From: an uncultured delta proteobacterium | GTDB lineage: Bacteria > Myxococcota_A > Polyangia > Polyangiales > B10-G4 | Direction of reading: 5' to 3' | Length of the DNA stretch: 64,000 nucleotides | NCBI GenBank assembly: GCA_963727445.1 | Contig: CAVSGI010000006.1 | Coordinates: forward strand, 288,001-352,000 | Shown here: positions 4,551 through 51,382 of the stretch, in pieces | Layout of the letters: each line of letters begins with the position of its first letter | Numbering within the stretch: position 1 is the stretch's first letter | Notes under the pieces: model-generated | Seen by the model: the letters and a program-made list of their open reading frames with translations, nothing else | The model's database searches: none | Told to the model about the DNA's origin: nothing | Position numbers and translations under genes: made by a program

Positions 4551-5473
4551 CTCGTGCTCTCCATCTCGGGCGCAGCCGGATCGGCGCCTGGCGCCTCTTG
4601 GGCTCTCGTGATGTGGGTGCGGAGCGTGAAGGCGCCGCCCAGGTCGGGTGCGTAGCTGTCGACGAGGAGCAGGTAGCTGCCGGGCTCGAGGTCGGCGGAC
4701 AGGCCGCTGTGCTGCGCGTCGGGATCGTCGTCGACGCAGGCGATCACCTCCGCGCCTTCGGCCGTCGCGCATCCGCGCCGCAGCTCGACGATCGCATCGA
4801 CGGAATCGGTGGTCACCTCTACCTCGAGGGTCGCCGCGGACGCGAGCTCCAAGCGGTAGAGGGCCTCGGGTCCGCGCCCGCCGCCGCCGCAGGCCGTGAC
4901 CGCGTCGGCGTCGGTGGGGATGAGGACGCCCTGGGTCTGCCCTTCGGCGAGGGGCGGCGCGCTCGCGCAGCGAGAGGCGAGGGCGGTCGCGTCCTCCACC
5001 GGTGGCTCGTCCCCCGGCACAGGCGGGGGCCCGTCGGGAGCCGGAGCCGGGGGCCGCGCGTCGACCGCGAGCACGAAGTCTCCCTCCCCGCCGCCCCAGC
5101 CGTCGACCACGACCAGGTAGCGCTTGCCCGCTTCGAGGTCGACCACCAGCCGAGCCTCGTCGCGCGCCTCGTGGTCGTCGTTGCAGGCGATCATCGACTC
5201 CCCCTCGTAGACGGCGATCACGATGTCGAAGGTGGCGCGCGCCCGGATGCCGTAGCGCCCGCTCGCGGGCACCTCGAGACCGTAGGCCACATCTGGGGCC
5301 AACAGGTCGCCCGAGCACTGCGGATCGAAGTCGTCGTGGGCGCCGTAGGTGGTGCCGTGGACAGGCTCGCCGAGCGCGATGGCCACGGTCTCGTCCGGGG
5401 CGCCGCCCATCGCCGCATAGATGAGCGGCGAGCAGCCGACACAAAGCGCGAGCAAGGGAACGAAGCGCGTCAC
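4547..5473 (-). CDS. Secreted lipoprotein with two PPC-like beta-sandwich domains
   Basis: Lipobox LCVGC; two similar modules (PDVAYGL...IACNDD...YLVVVDGW and PEALYRL...IACVDD...YLLLVDSY) separated by a Pro linker; TGA overlaps the proC ATG. Confidence 0.65.
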   Translation of the reverse strand: MTRFVPLLALCVGCSPLIYAAMGGAPDETVAIALGEPVHGTTYGAHDDFDPQCSGDLLAPDVAYGLEVPASGRYGIRARATFDIVIAVYEGESMIACNDDHEARDEARLVVDLEAGKRYLVVVDGWGGGEGDFVLAVDARPPAPAPDGPPPVPGDEPPVEDATALASRCASAPPLAEGQTQGVLIPTDADAVTACGGGGRGPEALYRLELASAATLEVEVTTDSVDAIVELRRGCATAEGAEVIACVDDDPDAQHSGLSADLEPGSYLLLVDSYAPDLGGAFTLRTHITRAQEAPGADPAAPEMESTR

Positions 5474-5522
5474 GGCGGGGGACAGTAGCCCAACGAGTCG
5501 CGACGCGGTATGGAGCGAGGCG

Positions 5523-6062
5523 ATGCGGCTCGCCCCGGCGCTCTCGACCCTCGTGCTCGCTCTCTTGCTGCCCGCGACGGCGCGGGCGGACGGGCCCCGC
5601 TATTCGAGTGACGGGATCTACGTGGGCGCGCGCGTGACGCCGGGGGTCGCGCTCTACGTCGCGTACGATCTCGACGTCTATCTCGACGCGGGGCGCCGCT
5701 TCTCCCTCGGTCCGGGCGTGGGGGGGACGTTCTTCGGCGCGGCGGCCGACGTCAGTCAGCAGCAGGACTACGCGATCGAGGTCGACCCGCTGAGGTTCAA
5801 GGCGCAGCCCACGGTGGGCGGCCACATTCGGCCCTTCGGGCTGGTGACCGCGGGCTTCATGTACACGCGCTATCCCATGCCCCCTGTCGCCACCGCTGAC
5901 GAATGGGCCGCGACGCTGGCGGTGGGCGCCGGGGCGGACTTCTGGATCGAGAAGCACTGGGCGCTCGACATCCTGCTCACCTCGCGCTTTCGCCTCACCC
6001 CGTCGGACAACCTCCCCATCGCGTGGGTGGAGCTCGCCTTCGGCGGACGCTTCGGGATGTGA
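5523..6062 (+). CDS. Outer-membrane beta-barrel-like protein
   Basis: Signal peptide ending ARA|DG, alternating amphipathic strands, C-terminal VELAFGGRFGM. Confidence 0.55.
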   Translation: MRLAPALSTLVLALLLPATARADGPRYSSDGIYVGARVTPGVALYVAYDLDVYLDAGRRFSLGPGVGGTFFGAAADVSQQQDYAIEVDPLRFKAQPTVGGHIRPFGLVTAGFMYTRYPMPPVATADEWAATLAVGAGADFWIEKHWALDILLTSRFRLTPSDNLPIAWVELAFGGRFGM

Positions 6063-7498
6063 TGGACGATCCCGCCGCGCAGCTCCGCGAAGCCCTCGAG
6101 GCGTTCCGTCACGAAGAGGCGATGGAGCGCGCCCGGAGGTGGCGCGGCATCGACGGCGCCGAGAGCGAGCGCGCGGTCGCGCGCCGCCATCGTCGCCTGG
6201 GCGACGTGACCCAGGTGCGCGCACTGCTCGAGGACGTGACGCGGGCCGGCGTGGACAGCGCCGGCGCCGCGGCGCTGAGAGCGCACCTCGCCCGGGCGGC
6301 CGCCGACCTCGTGCTCGCTCCGGCGCGCGACGCGCTCGAGGCGGCGGGCGGGGTCGAGCTTCGCTTCGGCCGCGACAAGGGCAACGTGGACGACGCGCTC
6401 GTGGCGCTGAGCGCTTCGGATCCCGAGCGGCAGACGTTCGCGGCCGCCGCGCTCGAGGCGCACGCCAGCCGCGTGGGCGAACATCTCGCCCAGGCCAAGG
6501 GCGAAGCGGATCGCGAAGGGCTGCGGGTCTTCGCCGGCGGCGCGCGGCCGCCGGACGCGGGCCCGGAAGCACAGGCGCTGGCGGAGCTCGCCGAGTCGCT
6601 CCTCGCCGCCACCGACGACGTCGCGCACGAGGTGCGGGGATGGCTCGCGCCAACAGGGAGCTCGGTGTTCGAGCTCATGCCGCGGCTCGCGCTTCCGGAG
6701 GCGTCGTCCTTCGTGCCGCGGCGCGATCGCTACCGTCGGCTCTCCGAAGGCGTCGCGGCCCTCGGCTTCGAAGGCGACCTGGCGTCGCGGGTGCGCGTGG
6801 CGGGGACCCATCCGTTTCCGGGGCCGAGAGCGCGCGTGGTTCTCGCGCGGACGCCCACGGACGCGCGCCTCTTCGAGTCGCGGCGCGAGTGGGGCGTCGC
6901 CTCGGAGCTTTCGGGCGCCGCGGTCCTCGGTCGCGCACTCGCCCACGTGCTCGCCGCGCCCGCCCTGCCGCTCGAGCATCGGAGGCCGCTCGGCGCAACG
7001 GTGGCGCGCGCCTTCGGCGTGATCGTCGCCCAGCTCATCGGCGATCGGGTGCATCTGATCCGAAGGCGCGGCATGACGGCGGCGGACGCCGATCGACTCG
7101 GCCGTGCGGCGGGTGCCCTGGGGGTCCTGACCGCGCGCTTGCGTGCGGCGGCGGTGACGGCGAGGGCCGCGTCGCGGAGCCCGGCCGAGCTCGAGGAGCA
7201 GGCCGCCGCGGCGGCGAGCCGCGCGCTCGGCGCGGACGTGCCCATCGCGCTCGCGCGCCTCGCGGTGGTGACCCCCGCCGCCGCAGGGCCTCGTTTCCGC
7301 GCGACGCTTCACGGGCTCGGCCTCGCCTGGCAGCTCCGCGAGCGATTCGACGAGGACTGGTTCGACAACCCCAAAGCGGCTGAGCCCCTTCGCGCGGCGG
7401 CGGCCCGGGGCGGGCTGCTGTCGGTCGAGGATTTCGCCGCGGAGCTGGGCGCGACGCCCGAGCTCGCGCCCCGCCGCCTCGCCGAGCTCTTCGGTTGA
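6062..7498 (+). CDS. Hypothetical protein, possibly a degenerate M3-like peptidase
   Basis: ATG overlaps the upstream TGA; GC3-rich frame; C-terminal LRERFDEDWFDNPKAAEPL; no intact HExxH (GRALAH instead). Confidence 0.5.
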   Translation: MDDPAAQLREALEAFRHEEAMERARRWRGIDGAESERAVARRHRRLGDVTQVRALLEDVTRAGVDSAGAAALRAHLARAAADLVLAPARDALEAAGGVELRFGRDKGNVDDALVALSASDPERQTFAAAALEAHASRVGEHLAQAKGEADREGLRVFAGGARPPDAGPEAQALAELAESLLAATDDVAHEVRGWLAPTGSSVFELMPRLALPEASSFVPRRDRYRRLSEGVAALGFEGDLASRVRVAGTHPFPGPRARVVLARTPTDARLFESRREWGVASELSGAAVLGRALAHVLAAPALPLEHRRPLGATVARAFGVIVAQLIGDRVHLIRRRGMTAADADRLGRAAGALGVLTARLRAAAVTARAASRSPAELEEQAAAAASRALGADVPIALARLAVVTPAAAGPRFRATLHGLGLAWQLRERFDEDWFDNPKAAEPLRAAAARGGLLSVEDFAAELGATPELAPRRLAELFG

Positions 7499-44588: not shown

Positions 44589-45788
44589 GTGGACCCCAAG
44601 AAGCTCCGCTCCCACGGTGACGTCGACCTCGCCGACAAGCTCTTGGCCGAGCGCTTGGTCATCGATCTCAACGAGCGTCTCGAGAAGGAGCAGGAGAAGA
44701 CGCCGCTGGGGATCAGGCGGCATCTGCTCGCGACGTCCATTCGAATCACCGAGCGGATGTTGCCCGACATCTTCGGGCTGGTCGCCGAGTGCCGTGAGCG
44801 ACTCGACATCGAGATCTCGCTCGAGGTCTACGTCTACGCGTCCACCTCCTTCAATGCGATGTGCATCAAGCCGGAGCAGGGGCGTCTCTTCATCCTGCTG
44901 AGCTCCAGCCTGCTCGAGGCCTTCGCGCCGGGGGAGCAGCGTTTCGTGATCGGCCACGAGCTCGGTCACCACCTCTTCGGTCATCTCGACATCCCCATCG
45001 GCTTTCTTCTGGGTGGCGACGAGCCTCCTCCGCCGGATATCGCACTTCGCCTCTTCGCCTGGTCGCGCTACGCCGAGATCAGCGCCGACCGGGCCGGGGC
45101 CTACTGCGCGAACGATCCCGACGCGGTGGCGCGCGCTCTCTTTCGCCTCGCCTCGGGGCTCACCATCAACCTCGACGACATCCGCATCGACGACTTCGCG
45201 GCCCAGGTCGACGACATGCAGGTGGAGGCGCAGGAGCCGGGGGCGAAGGCGCCGCAGGCGGATTGGTTCTCCACTCATCCCTTCAGTCCCCTGCGCCTCA
45301 AGGCCGTCCGGCACTTCTTCGATTCGGAGCTCTTCGTGCGCGACGAAATTCCGGTCAGCACCCTCGAGGCCCGGGTGCAGACCTTGATGGCGCTGATGGA
45401 GCCGAGCTATCTCGACGAGAAGAGCGACGCCGCCGAGACCGCGCGACGGCTCCTCTTCGCCGGAGCCATCGCGGTGGCCAACGTCTCCGGCGGGATCGAC
45501 GAGGCGGAGATCGCGGCCTTCGAGAAGTTCTTCGGCGAGCACTCCTTCACCGACAAGCTCGACATCGAGGCGATCGTGGCCTCTCTCGACCACCGCGTGA
45601 GCGCCGCGCTCGAACAGGTCTCCCATTCGCGCCGCATCCAGGTCTTGCGCGATCTCTGCGTGATCGCGCGCGCAGACGGACACGTGGATGATTCCGAGCG
45701 AATCCTCCTCGAGGATCTGGCGGGCCGCCTCGAAGTCCCGGCCGAGCTCGTCCACGCGACCCTTTGTGGGAACTGCGATCTGGACTGA
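44589..45788 (+). CDS. M48 metallopeptidase with a C-terminal TerB-like domain
   Basis: FVIGHELGH, EISADRAG, FSTHP; C-terminal VANVSGGIDEAE...ARADGHVDDSER. Confidence 0.82.
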   Translation: MDPKKLRSHGDVDLADKLLAERLVIDLNERLEKEQEKTPLGIRRHLLATSIRITERMLPDIFGLVAECRERLDIEISLEVYVYASTSFNAMCIKPEQGRLFILLSSSLLEAFAPGEQRFVIGHELGHHLFGHLDIPIGFLLGGDEPPPPDIALRLFAWSRYAEISADRAGAYCANDPDAVARALFRLASGLTINLDDIRIDDFAAQVDDMQVEAQEPGAKAPQADWFSTHPFSPLRLKAVRHFFDSELFVRDEIPVSTLEARVQTLMALMEPSYLDEKSDAAETARRLLFAGAIAVANVSGGIDEAEIAAFEKFFGEHSFTDKLDIEAIVASLDHRVSAALEQVSHSRRIQVLRDLCVIARADGHVDDSERILLEDLAGRLEVPAELVHATLCGNCDLD

Positions 45789-45828
45789 GCCGGACGCTTT
45801 CGAGCGCGCGCTGGCGTCATCATCTACG

Positions 45829-47169
45829 ATGGGAGGGGTGGGAGCTCGACTCGCGGCCCTTCATCTGGTCGTCCTGAGCGTGGCCTGCGGCCGCATCGAC
45901 TATGGGCCGATCGAAGGGGGCCTAGGGACCGACGCCGCCACCATGGACGCCTCGGATGCGTCCGACGTGATGGACGCCGTGACAGCTGACGTCGGGACGG
46001 ACGCGATGGCCAGCGATGGCGGTGAGACCGACTCGGCGGTGGGGGATGCTTCGTCCTGTTCGGGGTGCTCTCTCGGTGCGGAGTGCCTACCAGGGACCGA
46101 CCCCTCCGCCTGTGGATCCGGCGGTGGCCCCTGCATGGTGTGCGCGCCGACCGCGATATGTGGCGAAGGGAGCTGCACGACTCCGGATCGGCATGATCTG
46201 CTGGGTCTGGGCTTCGGGTGGAGCTGCGCTGCCAGAGGGGGATCGGGGTACTGCTGGGGCGGTAACTTCTCGGGCGAGCTGGGCGACGGCACGACCACCA
46301 ATCGGCCGATGCCCGGCTTGGTGTCGGGGTTGACCGGCGTCGCGGGGGTCGCGGCCAGCGACACCGCCACCTGCGCCCTCACCACCGACGGGGCCGTCTC
46401 GTGCTGGGGCTCGCGGACCTACGGGAGTTTCCCCGTTTCCATCGCCGCCCTCACCGACGCCGTGTCCCTTTCCGGCGGCGAAACGCACTTCTGCGCACTT
46501 CGCACCGGCGGCGTCGTCTCGTGCTGGGGCGACAACTTCGACGGGCGCCTCGGTGATGGGACGACGACCAGCTCGCCCTCACCGGTGAACGTCGCTGGCT
46601 TGCCCGGCGCCGCCGACCAGGTCACCGCCGGCTTCAGCCACTCCTGTGCGCGTGTCGGCGGTCAGGTCTACTGCTGGGGCTCGAACACCTTTGGGCAGCT
46701 CGGCGACTCGACCATGGCGCCTTCCCTCACGCCGGTCACGGTCACGGGACTGGGGGATGCCGTCGACATCGCCGCGGGCTATCGTCACACCTGCGCCGCC
46801 CGCGCGTCGGGTCCCGTGGTCTGCTGGGGGGCCAACTTCGCGCCCTCGCCGGTCACCGTCCCCATGTCCGACGGTGTCACCCGGCTCCGGGCGGGTTACG
46901 ACTACACGTGCGGCATCCGCTCCGGGAGCGTGCTCTGTTGGGGCATCAACGGTCTCGGCCAGCTCGGCGACGGGACCACCACCGCCCGGAGCGAAGCGAC
47001 GACGGTCGCGGCCATCGGGGGGGTGCTCGAGGTGGAGACGGGCAACCAGCACACATGCGCGCGGACGAGCGCGCTGGAGGTGTGGTGCTGGGGGGACAAT
47101 TCCGGCGGGGAGCTCGGGGACGGCTCGACTGTGGAGAGCCACGTACCGGTCCTCGTGGCGTTCCCCTGA
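45829..47169 (+). CDS. RCC1/BLIP-II repeat lipoprotein
   Basis: Lipobox SVAC; repeated CWGxNxxG(Q/E)LGDG and HTC motifs. Confidence 0.88.
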   Translation: MGGVGARLAALHLVVLSVACGRIDYGPIEGGLGTDAATMDASDASDVMDAVTADVGTDAMASDGGETDSAVGDASSCSGCSLGAECLPGTDPSACGSGGGPCMVCAPTAICGEGSCTTPDRHDLLGLGFGWSCAARGGSGYCWGGNFSGELGDGTTTNRPMPGLVSGLTGVAGVAASDTATCALTTDGAVSCWGSRTYGSFPVSIAALTDAVSLSGGETHFCALRTGGVVSCWGDNFDGRLGDGTTTSSPSPVNVAGLPGAADQVTAGFSHSCARVGGQVYCWGSNTFGQLGDSTMAPSLTPVTVTGLGDAVDIAAGYRHTCAARASGPVVCWGANFAPSPVTVPMSDGVTRLRAGYDYTCGIRSGSVLCWGINGLGQLGDGTTTARSEATTVAAIGGVLEVETGNQHTCARTSALEVWCWGDNSGGELGDGSTVESHVPVLVAFP

Positions 47170-47281: not shown

Positions 47282-47488
47282 TTGGAACACGACGACGAAG
47301 ACCGCCGTGCGCTGGCTAGGCGCAAGTTCCTGAAAGCAGCGGTGTATTTGCCGCCGCTGGTGGTGAGCGCCGTGAGCGCGAGCAAGGCGCATGCGCAGGC
47401 GAGCTGCACGCCGGCGACGTGTGGTCCGGTGACTTGTCCACCGGTGACGACCTGCATGCCGGACACCACCTGCATGCCGGCTGGCTGA
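47282..47488 (+). CDS. Putative RiPP precursor peptide with a Tat-like leader and Cys-Pro-Thr repeat core
   Basis: 68 aa; RRKFLK, YLPPLV, AHA|QAS; core SCTPATCGPVTCPPVTTCMPDTTCMPAG; ends 3 nt upstream of the radical SAM gene; TTG start. Confidence 0.75.
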   Translation: MEHDDEDRRALARRKFLKAAVYLPPLVVSAVSASKAHAQASCTPATCGPVTCPPVTTCMPDTTCMPAG

Positions 47489-47491
47489 GCC

Positions 47492-48598
47492 TTGAGCCAC
47501 GGGTTGATCTACGTCCCGCCCCGCTGGTTCGGGCGGAGACGAGGCGACCGCCTCGAGCTCTCGGAAGCGGTGCTGGGTCACGAGGTCGTCCTCGAAGGAC
47601 GCGCCGCAAAGAGCGTGGTCGATCGCGGTGAGCTCGACGAGGCCACCCGCTTCTTCGCCCGTCACGACCCGGCCCTCGCCGGCTTCGAGACCGACCTCGA
47701 GAGCTCGCCGCCGGTTCCCCTCACCCGCAAGACGCTGCTCAAGGGGACGGAGTGGGGCCGGCTCTTCGTCGAGCTCACCGGCCGCTGCAACGAGCGCTGC
47801 GTCCACTGCTATGCGAGCGCGGGGCCCGAGGTGGGCGAGGCCCTCGACTGGCCCACCATCGCTCGGGTGATCGACCAGGCGCACGGGATCGGCTTCGCCT
47901 CGATCCAGCTCACCGGCGGCGATCCCCTGGTCTCCGAGCACTGCCTCGCGGCGGCGGCGAGGGTGCGGGAGCGTGGCTTCCGCGAGCTCGAGATCTACAC
48001 CAATGGGCTCGCCCTTCGAGGCGCGCTCTACGAGGGCTTGCGCGATCTGGACGCGCACTTCGCCTTCTCGGTCTACTCCTCGGACCCCGCGGTGCACGAC
48101 GCCATCACCCAGGTGCCGGGCAGCCTGAAGCGCACCTCCGAGGCGATCCGACGCGCCGCGGCGGACGGGCTGACCTTGCGGGTGGGGATCATCGAGATGG
48201 CGGGAAACACCGCGGGCCTCGAGGCCACGCGGCGTTACGTCGAAGGGCTCGGGGTGCCGGAGGATCGCATCTCGTCGGACAGCTCGAGGGAAGTGGGCCG
48301 AGGCGACAGCTTCGCCGGCGAGTCCCAGGGCGCGCACGGGGGGCGGGGCGGTGTCGCTGCGGGCGTCCCGCGTTTCGTCGGACGCGCCGCCGTCGCTTAC
48401 GACGGCAGGGTCCACCCCTGCATCTTCAGCCGCGCAACCGTCCTCGGTGACGTGCGCGCGCAGTCGCTGAGCGAGATCCTCGAGGACGACACGCCGCTGT
48501 CGCCGCCGTCGAGGCGATTGGAAGTCTTTGGAGAGAGCGCGTCGATGGCCTGCTGGGAGTGTCGCCTCAGAAACCAGCTCCTCGGAGGTGCGACGTGA
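47492..48598 (+). CDS. Radical SAM enzyme with a SPASM/twitch-like C-terminus (putative peptide maturase)
   Basis: ELTGRCNERCVHCY (CxxxCxxC), LTGGDP, YTNG, HDAITQVPGS, DGRVHPC...CWEC. Confidence 0.92.
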   Translation: MSHGLIYVPPRWFGRRRGDRLELSEAVLGHEVVLEGRAAKSVVDRGELDEATRFFARHDPALAGFETDLESSPPVPLTRKTLLKGTEWGRLFVELTGRCNERCVHCYASAGPEVGEALDWPTIARVIDQAHGIGFASIQLTGGDPLVSEHCLAAAARVRERGFRELEIYTNGLALRGALYEGLRDLDAHFAFSVYSSDPAVHDAITQVPGSLKRTSEAIRRAAADGLTLRVGIIEMAGNTAGLEATRRYVEGLGVPEDRISSDSSREVGRGDSFAGESQGAHGGRGGVAAGVPRFVGRAAVAYDGRVHPCIFSRATVLGDVRAQSLSEILEDDTPLSPPSRRLEVFGESASMACWECRLRNQLLGGAT

Positions 48599-48873
48599 GC
48601 GCGAACCCGGTCCCGGTTCCCAAAGAGCTACCCCGCCACGAGATCGGCCCCGAGGGCGAGACCGTCCTCTTCGACGCGGACGGGAGCCAGCTCCTGGTGC
48701 TGAACGACATCGGCGCCGGCGTCTGGCTGCTCCTCGACGGAGAGCGCGGCCTCGCCGACATCGTCGACGAGATCCTCGAGGTGCACCCCGCGACGCGCGA
48801 CGCCGTGGAGCGTGACGTGCGCGCCTTCCTGGACGACCTGGTCGAGCGCGGTCTCGTCACCTGGCGCGACTGA
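48595..48873 (+). CDS. PqqD-family RiPP recognition element (standalone RRE)
   Basis: 92 aa; ETVLFD...LNDIGAGVWLLLDG...IVDEI...VERDVRAFLDDLVERGLV; GTGA overlap with the rSAM gene. Confidence 0.9.
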   Translation: MSANPVPVPKELPRHEIGPEGETVLFDADGSQLLVLNDIGAGVWLLLDGERGLADIVDEILEVHPATRDAVERDVRAFLDDLVERGLVTWRD

Positions 48874-49688
48874 TGATGAACGGGGTGCTGGTCGTCGCCG
48901 ACCTCGAGGTGCGCGTGTCGACGAGCGTCCCGGAGATGCTCCCACGCCTCGAAGCGATCTTCGGTGCGCCCTCCGAGCGGCCGGTGAGTCGCAGCATGTC
49001 GCTGGTGATTGGCCGGGAGCCCGAGGGGACGCTCGAGGTGACCTTCGATGGGGAGGAGACGATCGGCGAGCTCGCCGACGGCGACATCATCCCGACAATC
49101 GAAGGGCTCATCTACCAGGCGGTCACCGAGACGCCCGGGCGCGCCGCGCTCCACGCCGGGTGCGTGACGCGGGGCGGGCACACCTTGCTCTTCGTGGGGC
49201 CGTCGAACTCCGGGAAGAGCTCGCTCTGTCGCGCCGCGCTCGGCCGGGGCTGGCGGTACGCGAGCGATGACCTGACGCTCTTCGACGGCAGGCGTCTGTT
49301 GGGCCTCTCGCGGTCGATCGCCTTCGACGTGATCGACGTGGCGAAGGAGACGCCGGCGTGGGTCCGTGACGCCGACGTCTCGACCTACCAGACCTACGTG
49401 GGCGACAAGAACATCGCCGTGCCGCTCGTCTCGGTCGCTCCTACCCATCGCGTCGACGATTGGATCGACGGACAGGGCGCACACGTCGTGATCCCCGAGC
49501 GCGTTCAGACACGGACCTCCCTCGCGCCCCTGCCGGCGACCGACGCGCTGGCGGCGCTCCTCGCCGGCGCGCACCACCCCGATCCCCCGGACCTGGGCGT
49601 GCTGACACGGCGCGAGGCCTATCGTTTGTCGTGGGTCTCGCCCGACGAGGGGATCCACGCGATCGAGCGTGCTCTCGGCCTCGACTGA
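48873..49688 (+). CDS. HPr kinase-like P-loop kinase
   Basis: LHAGCV, Walker A GPSNSGKS, WRYASDD; start overlaps the PqqD stop. Confidence 0.82.
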   Translation: MMNGVLVVADLEVRVSTSVPEMLPRLEAIFGAPSERPVSRSMSLVIGREPEGTLEVTFDGEETIGELADGDIIPTIEGLIYQAVTETPGRAALHAGCVTRGGHTLLFVGPSNSGKSSLCRAALGRGWRYASDDLTLFDGRRLLGLSRSIAFDVIDVAKETPAWVRDADVSTYQTYVGDKNIAVPLVSVAPTHRVDDWIDGQGAHVVIPERVQTRTSLAPLPATDALAALLAGAHHPDPPDLGVLTRREAYRLSWVSPDEGIHAIERALGLD

Positions 49689-50530
49689 TGCGTCGGCGTA
49701 TCGAAGACGCACTTTACCACTCGATGGCGCGCGGGACGCGACGTCTGGTCGCGTCTCCCAGAGCTGGCCGTGCGCTCGCGACCAGTGCCGCCGCCATCCT
49801 GGCGCACGCGCTGGATCCGCGTGAACGCAGCCGCATCGGCATCGGCCTCTACGACGTGAGCTACGAGCCGTCTTACGAGCGCGAGGATCTCTACGATTGG
49901 GAACAGCGATGGTTCAGCCGGGTGTTGCCGGCGCCGCCGGGACGGATCCTGGTGGGCGCTGCCGGGGGAGGTCGTGAAGTGGGCGCGCTCCTCGAGCGAG
50001 GCTACGAGGTCGCCGCCTTCGAGCCCGCGGACAAGCCGCGCGCCCACGGTCGCGCGCGTCACCGTGGCCGCGTCACCATCGAAGCCGCCGACTACGACGC
50101 CCTCACCGCCGCCGTGCGAGGCGAAACGGCGTCGCCCCTGGCAGACATCGCACGCGCCCGCTACGACGCCGTGCTCCTCGGATGGGGTAGCTTCACCCAC
50201 GTTGCCGGCGGTGCACGGCGCGCGGCGCTCCTCTCCGCCTGCGACCAGCTCACCGACGGCCCGATCCTGGCGAGCTTCTATTTCCGCGAGGGGGCCGAAG
50301 CCCCTGACTCCCGCTCGGACGCCGCGCGATGGGGACGACGCATCGGGCGCGTGATCGGCCGCGCGCGCCGCGTGGAGGGCATCACCGAGGAGTGGGATTT
50401 CTACCATTGGGGTGGGTTCGCCCATCGCCTCTCGGTCGAGGACGTGGAGTCGGCGGCTCGGGCCGCAGGCCGGAAGGTTCTCTGGAGCCTGACCGACGGC
50501 TTCCCCCACGCGACGTTCACCAAGCTGTGA
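49688..50530 (+). CDS. Class I SAM-dependent methyltransferase
   Basis: Motif I-like RILVGAAGGGRE...VAAFEP; YDAVLLGWGSFTHV; start overlaps the kinase stop. Confidence 0.75.
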   Translation: MRRRIEDALYHSMARGTRRLVASPRAGRALATSAAAILAHALDPRERSRIGIGLYDVSYEPSYEREDLYDWEQRWFSRVLPAPPGRILVGAAGGGREVGALLERGYEVAAFEPADKPRAHGRARHRGRVTIEAADYDALTAAVRGETASPLADIARARYDAVLLGWGSFTHVAGGARRAALLSACDQLTDGPILASFYFREGAEAPDSRSDAARWGRRIGRVIGRARRVEGITEEWDFYHWGGFAHRLSVEDVESAARAAGRKVLWSLTDGFPHATFTKL

Positions 50531-50590: not shown

Positions 50591-51382
50591 ATGTCGCCTC
50601 GCTCGTGCACTTTCGGCGCGCTCCTCGTGATGCTCGCGTCGTGCACGGTGGACTCGTCGGCCATCCGTCCCGAGTCGGACGTCGCACCGGGCCATGATGT
50701 CGGCGTCGACACGAGCACACTCGATGCCATGCGCGACACCGCCGCGCGCGACACGACCGTCCCATCCCGACCGGATGGCGGTCCCGCGGACGCGACGACC
50801 CCGATGGATGGCGCGTCACCGGACGCCGCGCCCGACACCGGCACCGCCTCCGACACCAGCACCCCGCCGGATACCATCGCCCCGCCCGATGCCAGCATCC
50901 CGCTCAATTGCGGCGACCGCACCCTCGACCGCGGCGAGTCCTGCGATGATGGGAACAACACCAGCGGTGACGGCTGCAGCGCCGTCTGTGAGACCGAGTC
51001 TTCCTTCGACGACTGCCCCGGCGCACGCCTGGTCATCGGGCTCGGTAGGCAGAGCTATCGCGGGTCCAACGCCGGGGCTGCTTCGACCCAGACCTGCAGC
51101 AGTGGTCGGGGCCGCGGGCCGGACGCGGTCTACACCATCGCGCCCAACTACACGGGGCGACTCAACATCCGGGTGACCTCGCCCTTCGACGCGGTGTTGA
51201 TGACCAAGAGCGCCTGCCCGGGGGCGGTGCAGTTCTTCTGCGAGGACAGCTGGTATGGCGGGAGCACCGAGCAGGTCACGGGCGGCGTGAGCGCCGGGAC
51301 GGAGTACATGGTGATCGTCTCCGGCTACGGCTCGAGCGACACCGGCGACTTCGAGCTCGTCTTTCGGGGCTCGTCGCCCTGA
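50591..51382 (+). CDS. Lipoprotein with a Myxococcus Cys-rich repeat and a PPC-like domain
   Basis: Lipobox LASC; CGDRTLDRGESCDDGNNTSGDGCSAVC; GPDAVY...YMVIVSGY. Confidence 0.78.
   Translation: MSPRSCTFGALLVMLASCTVDSSAIRPESDVAPGHDVGVDTSTLDAMRDTAARDTTVPSRPDGGPADATTPMDGASPDAAPDTGTASDTSTPPDTIAPPDASIPLNCGDRTLDRGESCDDGNNTSGDGCSAVCETESSFDDCPGARLVIGLGRQSYRGSNAGAASTQTCSSGRGRGPDAVYTIAPNYTGRLNIRVTSPFDAVLMTKSACPGAVQFFCEDSWYGGSTEQVTGGVSAGTEYMVIVSGYGSSDTGDFELVFRGSSP

Follow-up and report, generated by a model that had tools for sequence, protein, structure and literature searches.

We propose that the first 38 residues of a short peptide encoded in the window (the whole 64,000-nucleotide stretch of DNA analysed) form a dual-use leader, which would guide tailoring of the peptide through a RiPP recognition element (RRE) and afterwards serve as a twin-arginine (Tat) signal for its export and its release by signal peptidase. 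Judging from the motifs and their conservation, we regard this reading as probable. That the leader combines a cleavable signal with an RRE-binding site can be held with high confidence, and Tat is the likely export route. A wider claim is put forward tentatively, its chances being somewhat below even: a RiPP class whose RRE leader is built into a Tat signal, in which the RRE acts as a proofreading-like mask until tailoring is done and one clade makes Tat-lipoproteins, that is, lipid-anchored crosslinked phosphopeptides.

The precursor and its operon

The precursor gene stands first in an operon of tightly packed genes, followed in order by those for a radical SAM enzyme, a PqqD protein, an HprK-like kinase and a methyltransferase-like protein. 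The features are:

47282..47488, + strand: precursor peptide gene, 68 aa, TTG start (open reading frame; 38-aa leader/signal and 30-aa core)
47315..47335, + strand: twin-arginine motif A-R-R-K-F-L-K, residues 12-18 (read from the open reading frame)
47336..47383, + strand: hydrophobic stretch of 16 uncharged residues, 19-34 (A19-S34), a putative h-region
47345..47362, + strand: Y-L-P-P-L-V (residues 22-27), candidate binding site for the RRE, within the uncharged run
47384..47395, + strand: K-A-H-A, a basic residue and a putative signal peptidase I site, predicted cut between A38 and Q39
47396..47485, + strand: core, 30 aa, with five C-x-P repeats and five Cys; it begins Q-A-S, then the first Cys
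47402-47404, + strand: core Ser3, candidate kinase site
47492..48598, + strand: radical SAM enzyme with a short three-Cys auxiliary-cluster (SPASM-like) domain (PF04055 and PF13186)
48595..48873, + strand: discrete PqqD-type RRE (PF05402)
48873..49688, + strand: HprK-like kinase (TIGR04352, below cut-off, E 7e-11)
49688..50530, + strand: methyltransferase-like accessory gene, lineage-restricted (weak match to NF041820, E 8e-4)

The initial annotation had described this leader as a twin-arginine motif, the sequence YLPPLV, a hydrophobic run and the site A-H-A before Q, all of which are present in the open reading frame 47282-47488. Some details differ from its account. The Tat consensus S/T-R-R-x-F-L-K holds from the arginines onwards (RR-K-F-L-K), with Ala instead of Ser/Thr preceding them; the claimed likeness to YxxPxL extends to the YxxP part, the final residue being Val (YxxPxV) and not Leu; and the cut site, said to lie directly before the Cys core, is separated from the first Cys by Q-A-S. 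Its remark that the operon has no ABC transporter or protease is borne out, as the five genes hold neither a peptidase nor a transporter. The genes flanking the operon (45688-47169 and 50591-51382) encode lipoprotein-like proteins, with RCC1 repeats and a Cys-rich acidic repeat, and are not among the recurrent neighbours of related loci.

A screen of the 40,664 short open reading frames (40-130 aa, all frames) of the source genome used a Tat-like rule of our own rather than a published program. This rule is passed by 128 of them, 17 of which also have A-x-A at the right distance, and only one of the 40,664, the window precursor, combines the rule and A-x-A with YxxPx[LVIFA] nine residues after the arginines. 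A chance combination of motifs is ruled out by this genome-wide screen, by the A-x-A shuffles and by the conservation found without reference to the arginines, both given below. Searched against Pfam and NCBIfam, Tat signal models included, the peptide gave no match at E<=1; its look-alikes in the Atlas, at 0.90-0.91 and under the recognition threshold, are named Cys-Xaa-Xaa-Xaa repeat targets, and no solved structure resembling it was found. Neither tblastn nor a pattern search revealed a second precursor copy in the source genome, and no sigma-70 promoter or terminator pattern was found.

Relatives and their loci

Clustered at 50% identity, the precursors found by a profile search amount to 258 representatives; the analysis used the 150 that scored best. 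The named records of the family come mostly from metagenome-assembled genomes (MAGs) of Myxococcota and Zetaproteobacteria and are nearly all annotated as hypothetical protein; no NCBIfam model matches the precursor family better than E 0.002. Searches with the radical SAM enzyme and the precursor gave 97 loci with a strong radical SAM match, reduced to 84 after removal of duplicates. These loci span 1.8-13 kb, many being short, and some missing genes reflect contig ends. PqqD is found in 78 of the 84 loci (79 by clustering, one spurious row, L008, having been dropped), the HprK-like kinase in 68, a nucleotidyltransferase of the NTP_transf_5 type in 48, and a methyltransferase-like family, to which the window protein is 37% identical, in 14. 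The nucleotidyltransferase is absent from the window's own cluster. Two NTP_transf_5 genes unlinked to the operon lie elsewhere in the source genome (C9:162712-163578 and C16:38296-39156), and the first, which shares about 32% identity with the nucleotidyltransferases encoded in the cassettes of relatives, could act in trans.

The loci vary in several ways. Those of Zetaproteobacteria (L183-L219, L227) have the same leader with much longer Cys/Lys-rich cores, many of which contain a C-C-P-C or C-x-P-x-x-C-x-P-C motif. The precursor occurs in two or three copies in L190, L197, L198, L204 and L214, and lies downstream of the radical SAM gene or on the opposite strand in L174, L179, L180, L182 and L217-L218; that of L182 lacks a recognisable cleavage site. 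Between precursor and radical SAM gene, L172 carries a second, decayed copy of the leader start (625-800). In six loci (L089, L092, L203, L207, L211, L217), mostly of the early-Cys type discussed below, the cassette is embedded among exopolysaccharide or capsule genes, including a flippase, a chain-length regulator, an asparagine-synthase-like gene and an O-antigen ligase.

Conservation of the twin arginines

Among the 150 profile matches, 145 could be anchored on RR and [YWF]xxP, and the other five keep RR without the aromatic residue. An alignment of 149 sequences combined the window peptide and three of its close relatives with 145 of the 150 profile matches; the five omitted were overlong or truncated. 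R13, R14 and P25 are invariant in it, the set having been chosen by a profile that itself contains RR. Precursors were therefore also picked blind to the arginines in the 84 loci selected by their radical SAM enzyme, with a pattern consisting of [YW]xxP, an uncharged run and C-x-P. This pattern found 86 open reading frames in 74 loci. Five of them were dropped, namely all those without RR or KR; they also lack the family leader and core, and each of their loci has a proper precursor as well. The other 81 precursors, window included, comprise 80 with RR and one with KR, always exactly nine residues before the Tyr. The arginine pair is conserved among homologues, and the one exception, RR to KR, is a change that Tat tolerates. 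As to the 10 loci without a match to the pattern, the radical SAM gene lies at the end of a contig in five, an assembly gap interrupts one, and in three the pattern missed a precursor with RR; in the last, L161 (13 kb), a radical SAM-PqqD-kinase cassette at 5300-6100 has no precursor upstream or by pattern.

Tat signals follow an RR-x-hydrophobic-hydrophobic-K/R spacing, and a basic residue before the cleavage site is a feature that helps to avoid Sec. RRx[FLAMVIS][LIMVF] fits 140 of the 145 relatives, the arginines lie at most 35 residues from the start in 128 of 138, and an uncharged run of at least 13 residues follows them in 136 of 145 (family median 16); both parts of our Tat-like rule are passed by 114 of 145. 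At the consensus Phe position 84% of the family have Leu instead, and Ala replaces Ser/Thr before the arginines in 79%. For comparison we used the 27 matches to TIGR01409 in the source genome as native Tat-like signals, a few of which look spurious. The hydropathy of the stretch is 1.71+-0.28 in the family and 1.88 in the window (first 13 residues) versus 1.40+-0.37 in these native signals, a difference that favours Sec. The prolines in the stretch are no objection to Tat, since 23 of the 27 native signals have one. The window peptide does not match the curated Tat profiles TIGR01409 and PF10518 and is absent from the 27 genomic matches; each profile finds 2 of the 149 members, weakly (best E for TIGR01409 0.21). 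More members match TIGR02811, the model of a Tat-signal family, than any other, again weakly (28 of 149, best E 0.0025). The source genome, whose completeness is 85.6%, encodes TatC and gives two matches to TatA/B and three to signal peptidase I. TatC occurs in 47 of 50 carrier genomes, all of them MAGs, a presence that does not discriminate, TatC being widespread.

The RRE-binding motif and its PqqD partner

The motif [Y/W]xxPx[L/V/I/F/A] has been defined for discrete RREs (PMC13381572). It is present in 144 of the 145 anchored relatives, and [YW]xxP occurs in none of the 27 native Tat-like signals. The operon's PqqD is the only one found in the source genome, and the best solved relatives of its profile include TbiB1, TfuB1 and LppB. 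In the crystal structure of LppB with its leader, N33 holds the leader in its kink at the Pro, against which F74 packs, and D70 forms a bond with the Tyr (PMC13381572). By our own count N37, D74 and F78 of the window protein are in register with these three residues; of 64 rows, 63 retain N37, 63 retain D74 and 25 retain F78. On this correspondence of residues and the profile matches the window PqqD is assigned to the YxxP-binding type.

A predicted complex of PqqD with the leader, a check that the initial annotation had proposed, speaks weakly for binding: it scores 0.35 versus 0.02 for the best of three controls, its contacts agree to at least 84% and the partner's pLDDT is 59 or more. Like complexes have already been solved, so the pass may stem from structures known to the model. 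The mark applied is reached by 116 of 157 solved pairs and by 2 of 215 mismatched ones, and at a score of 0.60 or under stand only 18 solved pairs together with both mismatches.

The cleavage site and its lipobox-like variant

In 106 of the 123 relatives without an early Cys, an A-x-A site ends 14-19 residues after the Tyr, versus 26.8+-4.4 (maximum 42) in 1000 within-sequence shuffles; a relaxed definition of the site gives 120 of 123 versus 89.7. Before the site, 80 of the 123 have a basic residue. Gln occupies position +1 in 49 of the 106 sites, as it does in the window, where A-H-A is followed by Q and there is no Pro at +1. The A-x-A persists in Zetaproteobacteria, despite cores differing in length and sequence.

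In the remaining 22 of the 145 relatives a Cys follows the Tyr at a distance of 14-17 residues; its -1 position is G, A or S throughout (22/22), and in none of these relatives is there an A-x-A or a basic residue (0/22 for each). This type looks like a signal peptidase I site swapped for a signal peptidase II site, and we lean towards lipidation in the clade concerned. As lipoboxes the sites are non-canonical: Gln, Glu or Asn is common at -3 or -2, a feature shared by just 9 of the source genome's 356 native lipoprotein-like proteins. The absence of A-x-A does not amount to 22 independent events, since the early-Cys type is largely one clade: a tree covering 43 of the 84 loci shows three changes. 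We also considered the early Cys as position -1 of a signal peptidase I site. This would be possible in 14 of the 22, the other 8 having Gln or Glu at a position that must be small, and Gly is found in 19 of 22 versus 9 of 106 at the matching position of A-x-A sites; the idea was rejected. An lgt gene directly follows the kinase gene in L187 (6821-7597), probably by coincidence, as the precursor there is of the A-x-A type.

Peptidases and exporters

The initial annotation would have been contradicted by the need for a remote dedicated peptidase or transporter; as far as computation goes it is not refuted, and no peptidase or ABC exporter recurs in the 84 loci. The survey covered 127 of 137 neighbour representatives with Pfam, long ones cut to 520 residues, and the neighbouring genes proved mostly housekeeping and polysaccharide ones. 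Signature patterns, insensitive as they are (they missed the ABC genes of L209), found no C39 and no S26 in the loci and one ABC signature at a locus edge. Isolated cases are an ABC-2 pair in L209, an M12 peptidase in L213, and both an M32 peptidase and an importer permease in L180; 15 Zetaproteobacteria loci have a gene for an MFS transporter, encoded on the opposite strand. The source genome, at its 85.6% completeness, yielded no C39 and no archaeal-type signal peptidase (TIGR02228), and a single S24 match.

Likely chemistry

Cys residues of the cores stand in C-x-P in 665 of 699 cases, mostly 5 or 6 apart. In the radical SAM enzyme the Cys of the SAM cluster (C99, C103, C106) and of the auxiliary cluster (C310, C354, C357) are kept in 80 of 80 sequences, and exactly three invariant auxiliary Cys imply an open iron site. 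In the thioether enzymes PapB and Tte1186 the sulfur of the substrate binds the auxiliary cluster (PMC10177961). The best fold match of the enzyme model (pLDDT 81.7) is SkfB (Z 21.7, rmsd 6.1, 273 residues aligned over residues 5-366), with SuiB and CteB also high among the matches. A thioether crosslink from Cys to carbon along the C-x-P repeats seems, on balance, the modification to expect. The N-terminal 77 residues (47492-47722) are modelled as strands then helices and align with the N-terminal part of SkfB; modelled alone they give a mediocre pLDDT of 68, and they show no profile likeness to PqqD. This domain may possibly be a second leader-binding domain (RRE).

A Walker A motif is present in 65 of the 68 HprK-like kinases, and the first core Cys has a Ser before it in 121 of 145 relatives, compared with 58 of 554 Cys further along. 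Given this conservation, and since LppK phosphorylates Ser3 of the LPP (linear polyphosphorylated peptide) core (PMC13381572), core Ser3 is likely the kinase site. The function of the product may be guessed at as metal binding in the periplasm, including that of iron-oxidising Zetaproteobacteria. Matches to TIGR04114 in the source genome lie away from the operon.

Proposed route and alternatives

From the anatomy, conservation and gene content set out above we infer the binding, the chemistry, the order of events and the subsequent steps as follows. PqqD would grip YxxPxV in the cytoplasm, thereby covering the hydrophobic stretch, and hand the core to two tailoring enzymes: the radical SAM enzyme, which would most likely form Cys-to-carbon thioethers across the C-x-P repeats, and the kinase, whose most likely target would be Ser3; in relatives the nucleotidyltransferase would decorate the core further. 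Once PqqD is released, the same stretch would act as a twin-arginine signal, and TatABC would carry the constrained peptide across the inner membrane. The housekeeping signal peptidase I would then cut after A-H-A, leaving in the periplasm a 30-residue peptide that starts with Gln. In one clade, whose cut site is [GAS]-C, Lgt and signal peptidase II would act instead and leave the product anchored by a lipid. The initial annotation, which had proposed Tat export and release by signal peptidase, thus gains computational support from the arginines, the A-x-A site and the gene content, export being the inferred part. Its account did not extend to the lipobox-type variant, the conserved Ser, the C-x-P repeat or the nucleotidyltransferase that many relatives have.

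A leader that unites a cleavable signal and an RRE site might instead be exported by Sec, its arginines being kept for binding the N-terminal domain of the radical SAM enzyme or the kinase. We consider this unlikely. The spacing of the arginines, the single KR variant and the basic residue before A-x-A (80/123) all fit Tat rules, and a multiply crosslinked peptide would suit a pathway for folded substrates. What speaks for Sec is the hydropathy above that of native Tat-like signals, the weak match to Tat profiles, the strands-then-helices domain, which could bind a leader, and the precedent of bufferins (PMC11626156) and DAG-RiPPs (PMC13056109), described as having ordinary signal peptides and being modified in the cytoplasm before export.

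The leader could also be cut in the cytoplasm by a soluble signal peptidase like LppS encoded elsewhere, with a remote pump or the neighbouring MFS as exporter. The LPP clusters, which share the set of RRE, kinase and nucleotidyltransferase, do have a leader peptidase and an ABC pump (PMC13381572); the nucleotidyltransferase of the source genome is already unlinked, so parts can lie elsewhere; and one may add the MFS genes of 15 loci and the incompleteness of the genome (85.6%). We nevertheless find such a route improbable: among the candidate peptidases sought in the genome only the S24 match was found, with no archaeal-type signal peptidase or C39; the LPP leader consensus as published in PMC13381572 contains neither RR nor a hydrophobic region; and the lipobox-type swap and the uncharged run of at least 13 residues (136/145) would go unexplained without membrane targeting. 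Very improbable, finally, is a leader that is a signal peptide only, with enzymes reading the core as in bufferins and YxxP kept for another reason. The bufferin signal is dispensable for modification (PMC11626156), the model of the PqqD-leader complex (0.35) speaks weakly for binding, and Tyr/Trp is absent in 5 of 150 relatives; against this stand YxxPx[LVIFA] at a fixed offset in 144 of 145 relatives and in 0 of 27 native Tat-like signals, and the presence of PqqD, pocket residues conserved, at 78 of 84 loci. Our preferred reading remains that of RRE-guided tailoring followed by Tat export.

Comparison with known systems

On gene content the system is a member of none of the LPP, paeninodin, sactipeptide, bufferin and DAG-RiPP groups. 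By analogy, it is an LPP/paeninodin-like tailoring set joined to a sactipeptide-type enzyme, in which, as bufferins and DAG-RiPPs also show, a signal peptide takes the place of a dedicated peptidase and pump. The LPP systems of Bacillota resemble it in the discrete RRE that binds YxxPxV, the HprK-like kinase and the NTP transferase, in the phosphorylated Ser3 of the core, Ser3 being present in the window core too, and in cleavage by an enzyme of the signal peptidase type; the capsule or exopolysaccharide neighbourhood of some family loci is likewise shared with LPP clusters (PMC13381572). They differ in having a dedicated peptidase, LppS, and a pump, LppD, and, as described there, in lacking a radical SAM enzyme and Cys repeats (PMC13381572); the terms Tat, signal peptide and radical have no occurrence in the main text of that article. 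Membership in the LPP group was rejected, as the archaeal-type signal peptidase and MsbA-like pump are absent from the operon and do not recur in the 84 loci.

Lasso peptide pairs of RRE and leader (TbiB1, TfuB1/FusB1, the paeninodin protein PbaB1) have the same [Y/W]xxPx[L/V/I/F/A] motif and RRE pocket, and paeninodin clusters also carry a kinase and an NTP transferase (PMC13381572). The window family differs from lasso peptides in its Cys-rich core and signal-type leader, and was not assigned to them, the operon having no macrolactam cyclase and no B2 peptidase; asparagine-synthase-like genes near three loci lie in polysaccharide regions. Like the sactipeptide and ranthipeptide maturases SkfB and CteB, the radical SAM enzyme has an auxiliary cluster and would act on a Cys-repeat peptide. 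The Cys-Xaa-Xaa-Xaa repeat targets of radical SAM enzymes (TIGR04114/TIGR04117), whose precursors also have a twin-Arg-like start, are built on CxxxC, whereas the window family has C-x-P at a spacing of 5-6; from both groups it is set apart by its discrete PqqD and kinase, and it stays below all NCBIfam cut-offs.

RiPPs with signal peptides are already known, and Sec-signal lanthipeptides such as cinnamycin are precedents for A-x-A leaders. The MNIO-modified bufferins share with the window family a Cys-rich precursor, housekeeping export and release by signal peptidase with no dedicated peptidase, and differ in their Sec signal, their MNIO chemistry and the dispensability of the signal for modification (PMC11626156); the window family places its RRE motif within the signal and almost never departs from RR. 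DAG-RiPPs, which are RiPP-lipoprotein hybrids, also have signal peptidase I and lipobox variants within one family, with MNIO enzymes, canonical lipoboxes and recognition via a C-terminal motif as differences (PMC13056109). Their authors expect lipidated RiPPs to be leader-independent (PMC13056109), and Tat, twin, RRE and radical SAM do not occur in the available text of that article. A literature search by title and start of abstract found no published RiPP that is Tat-exported and RRE-dependent or that has its RRE site in the signal, and a term search of PMC10288494 returned nothing relevant on Tat/RRE RiPPs.

The enzymes so far associated with signal-peptide RiPPs read the core or the C-terminus (PMC11626156, PMC13056109). 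If our reading is true, a single 38-residue stretch satisfies an RRE, the Tat receptor and signal peptidase, with the RRE setting the order of modification, then export, and the peptide could do without a protease and pump of its own by using the cell's general export machinery. The system would then suit studies of the timing of modification and export, and would offer a portable leader to secrete or lipid-anchor crosslinked peptides without dedicated genes. The analysis also names an uncharacterised family of C-x-P-repeat peptides in Myxococcota and iron-oxidising Zetaproteobacteria.
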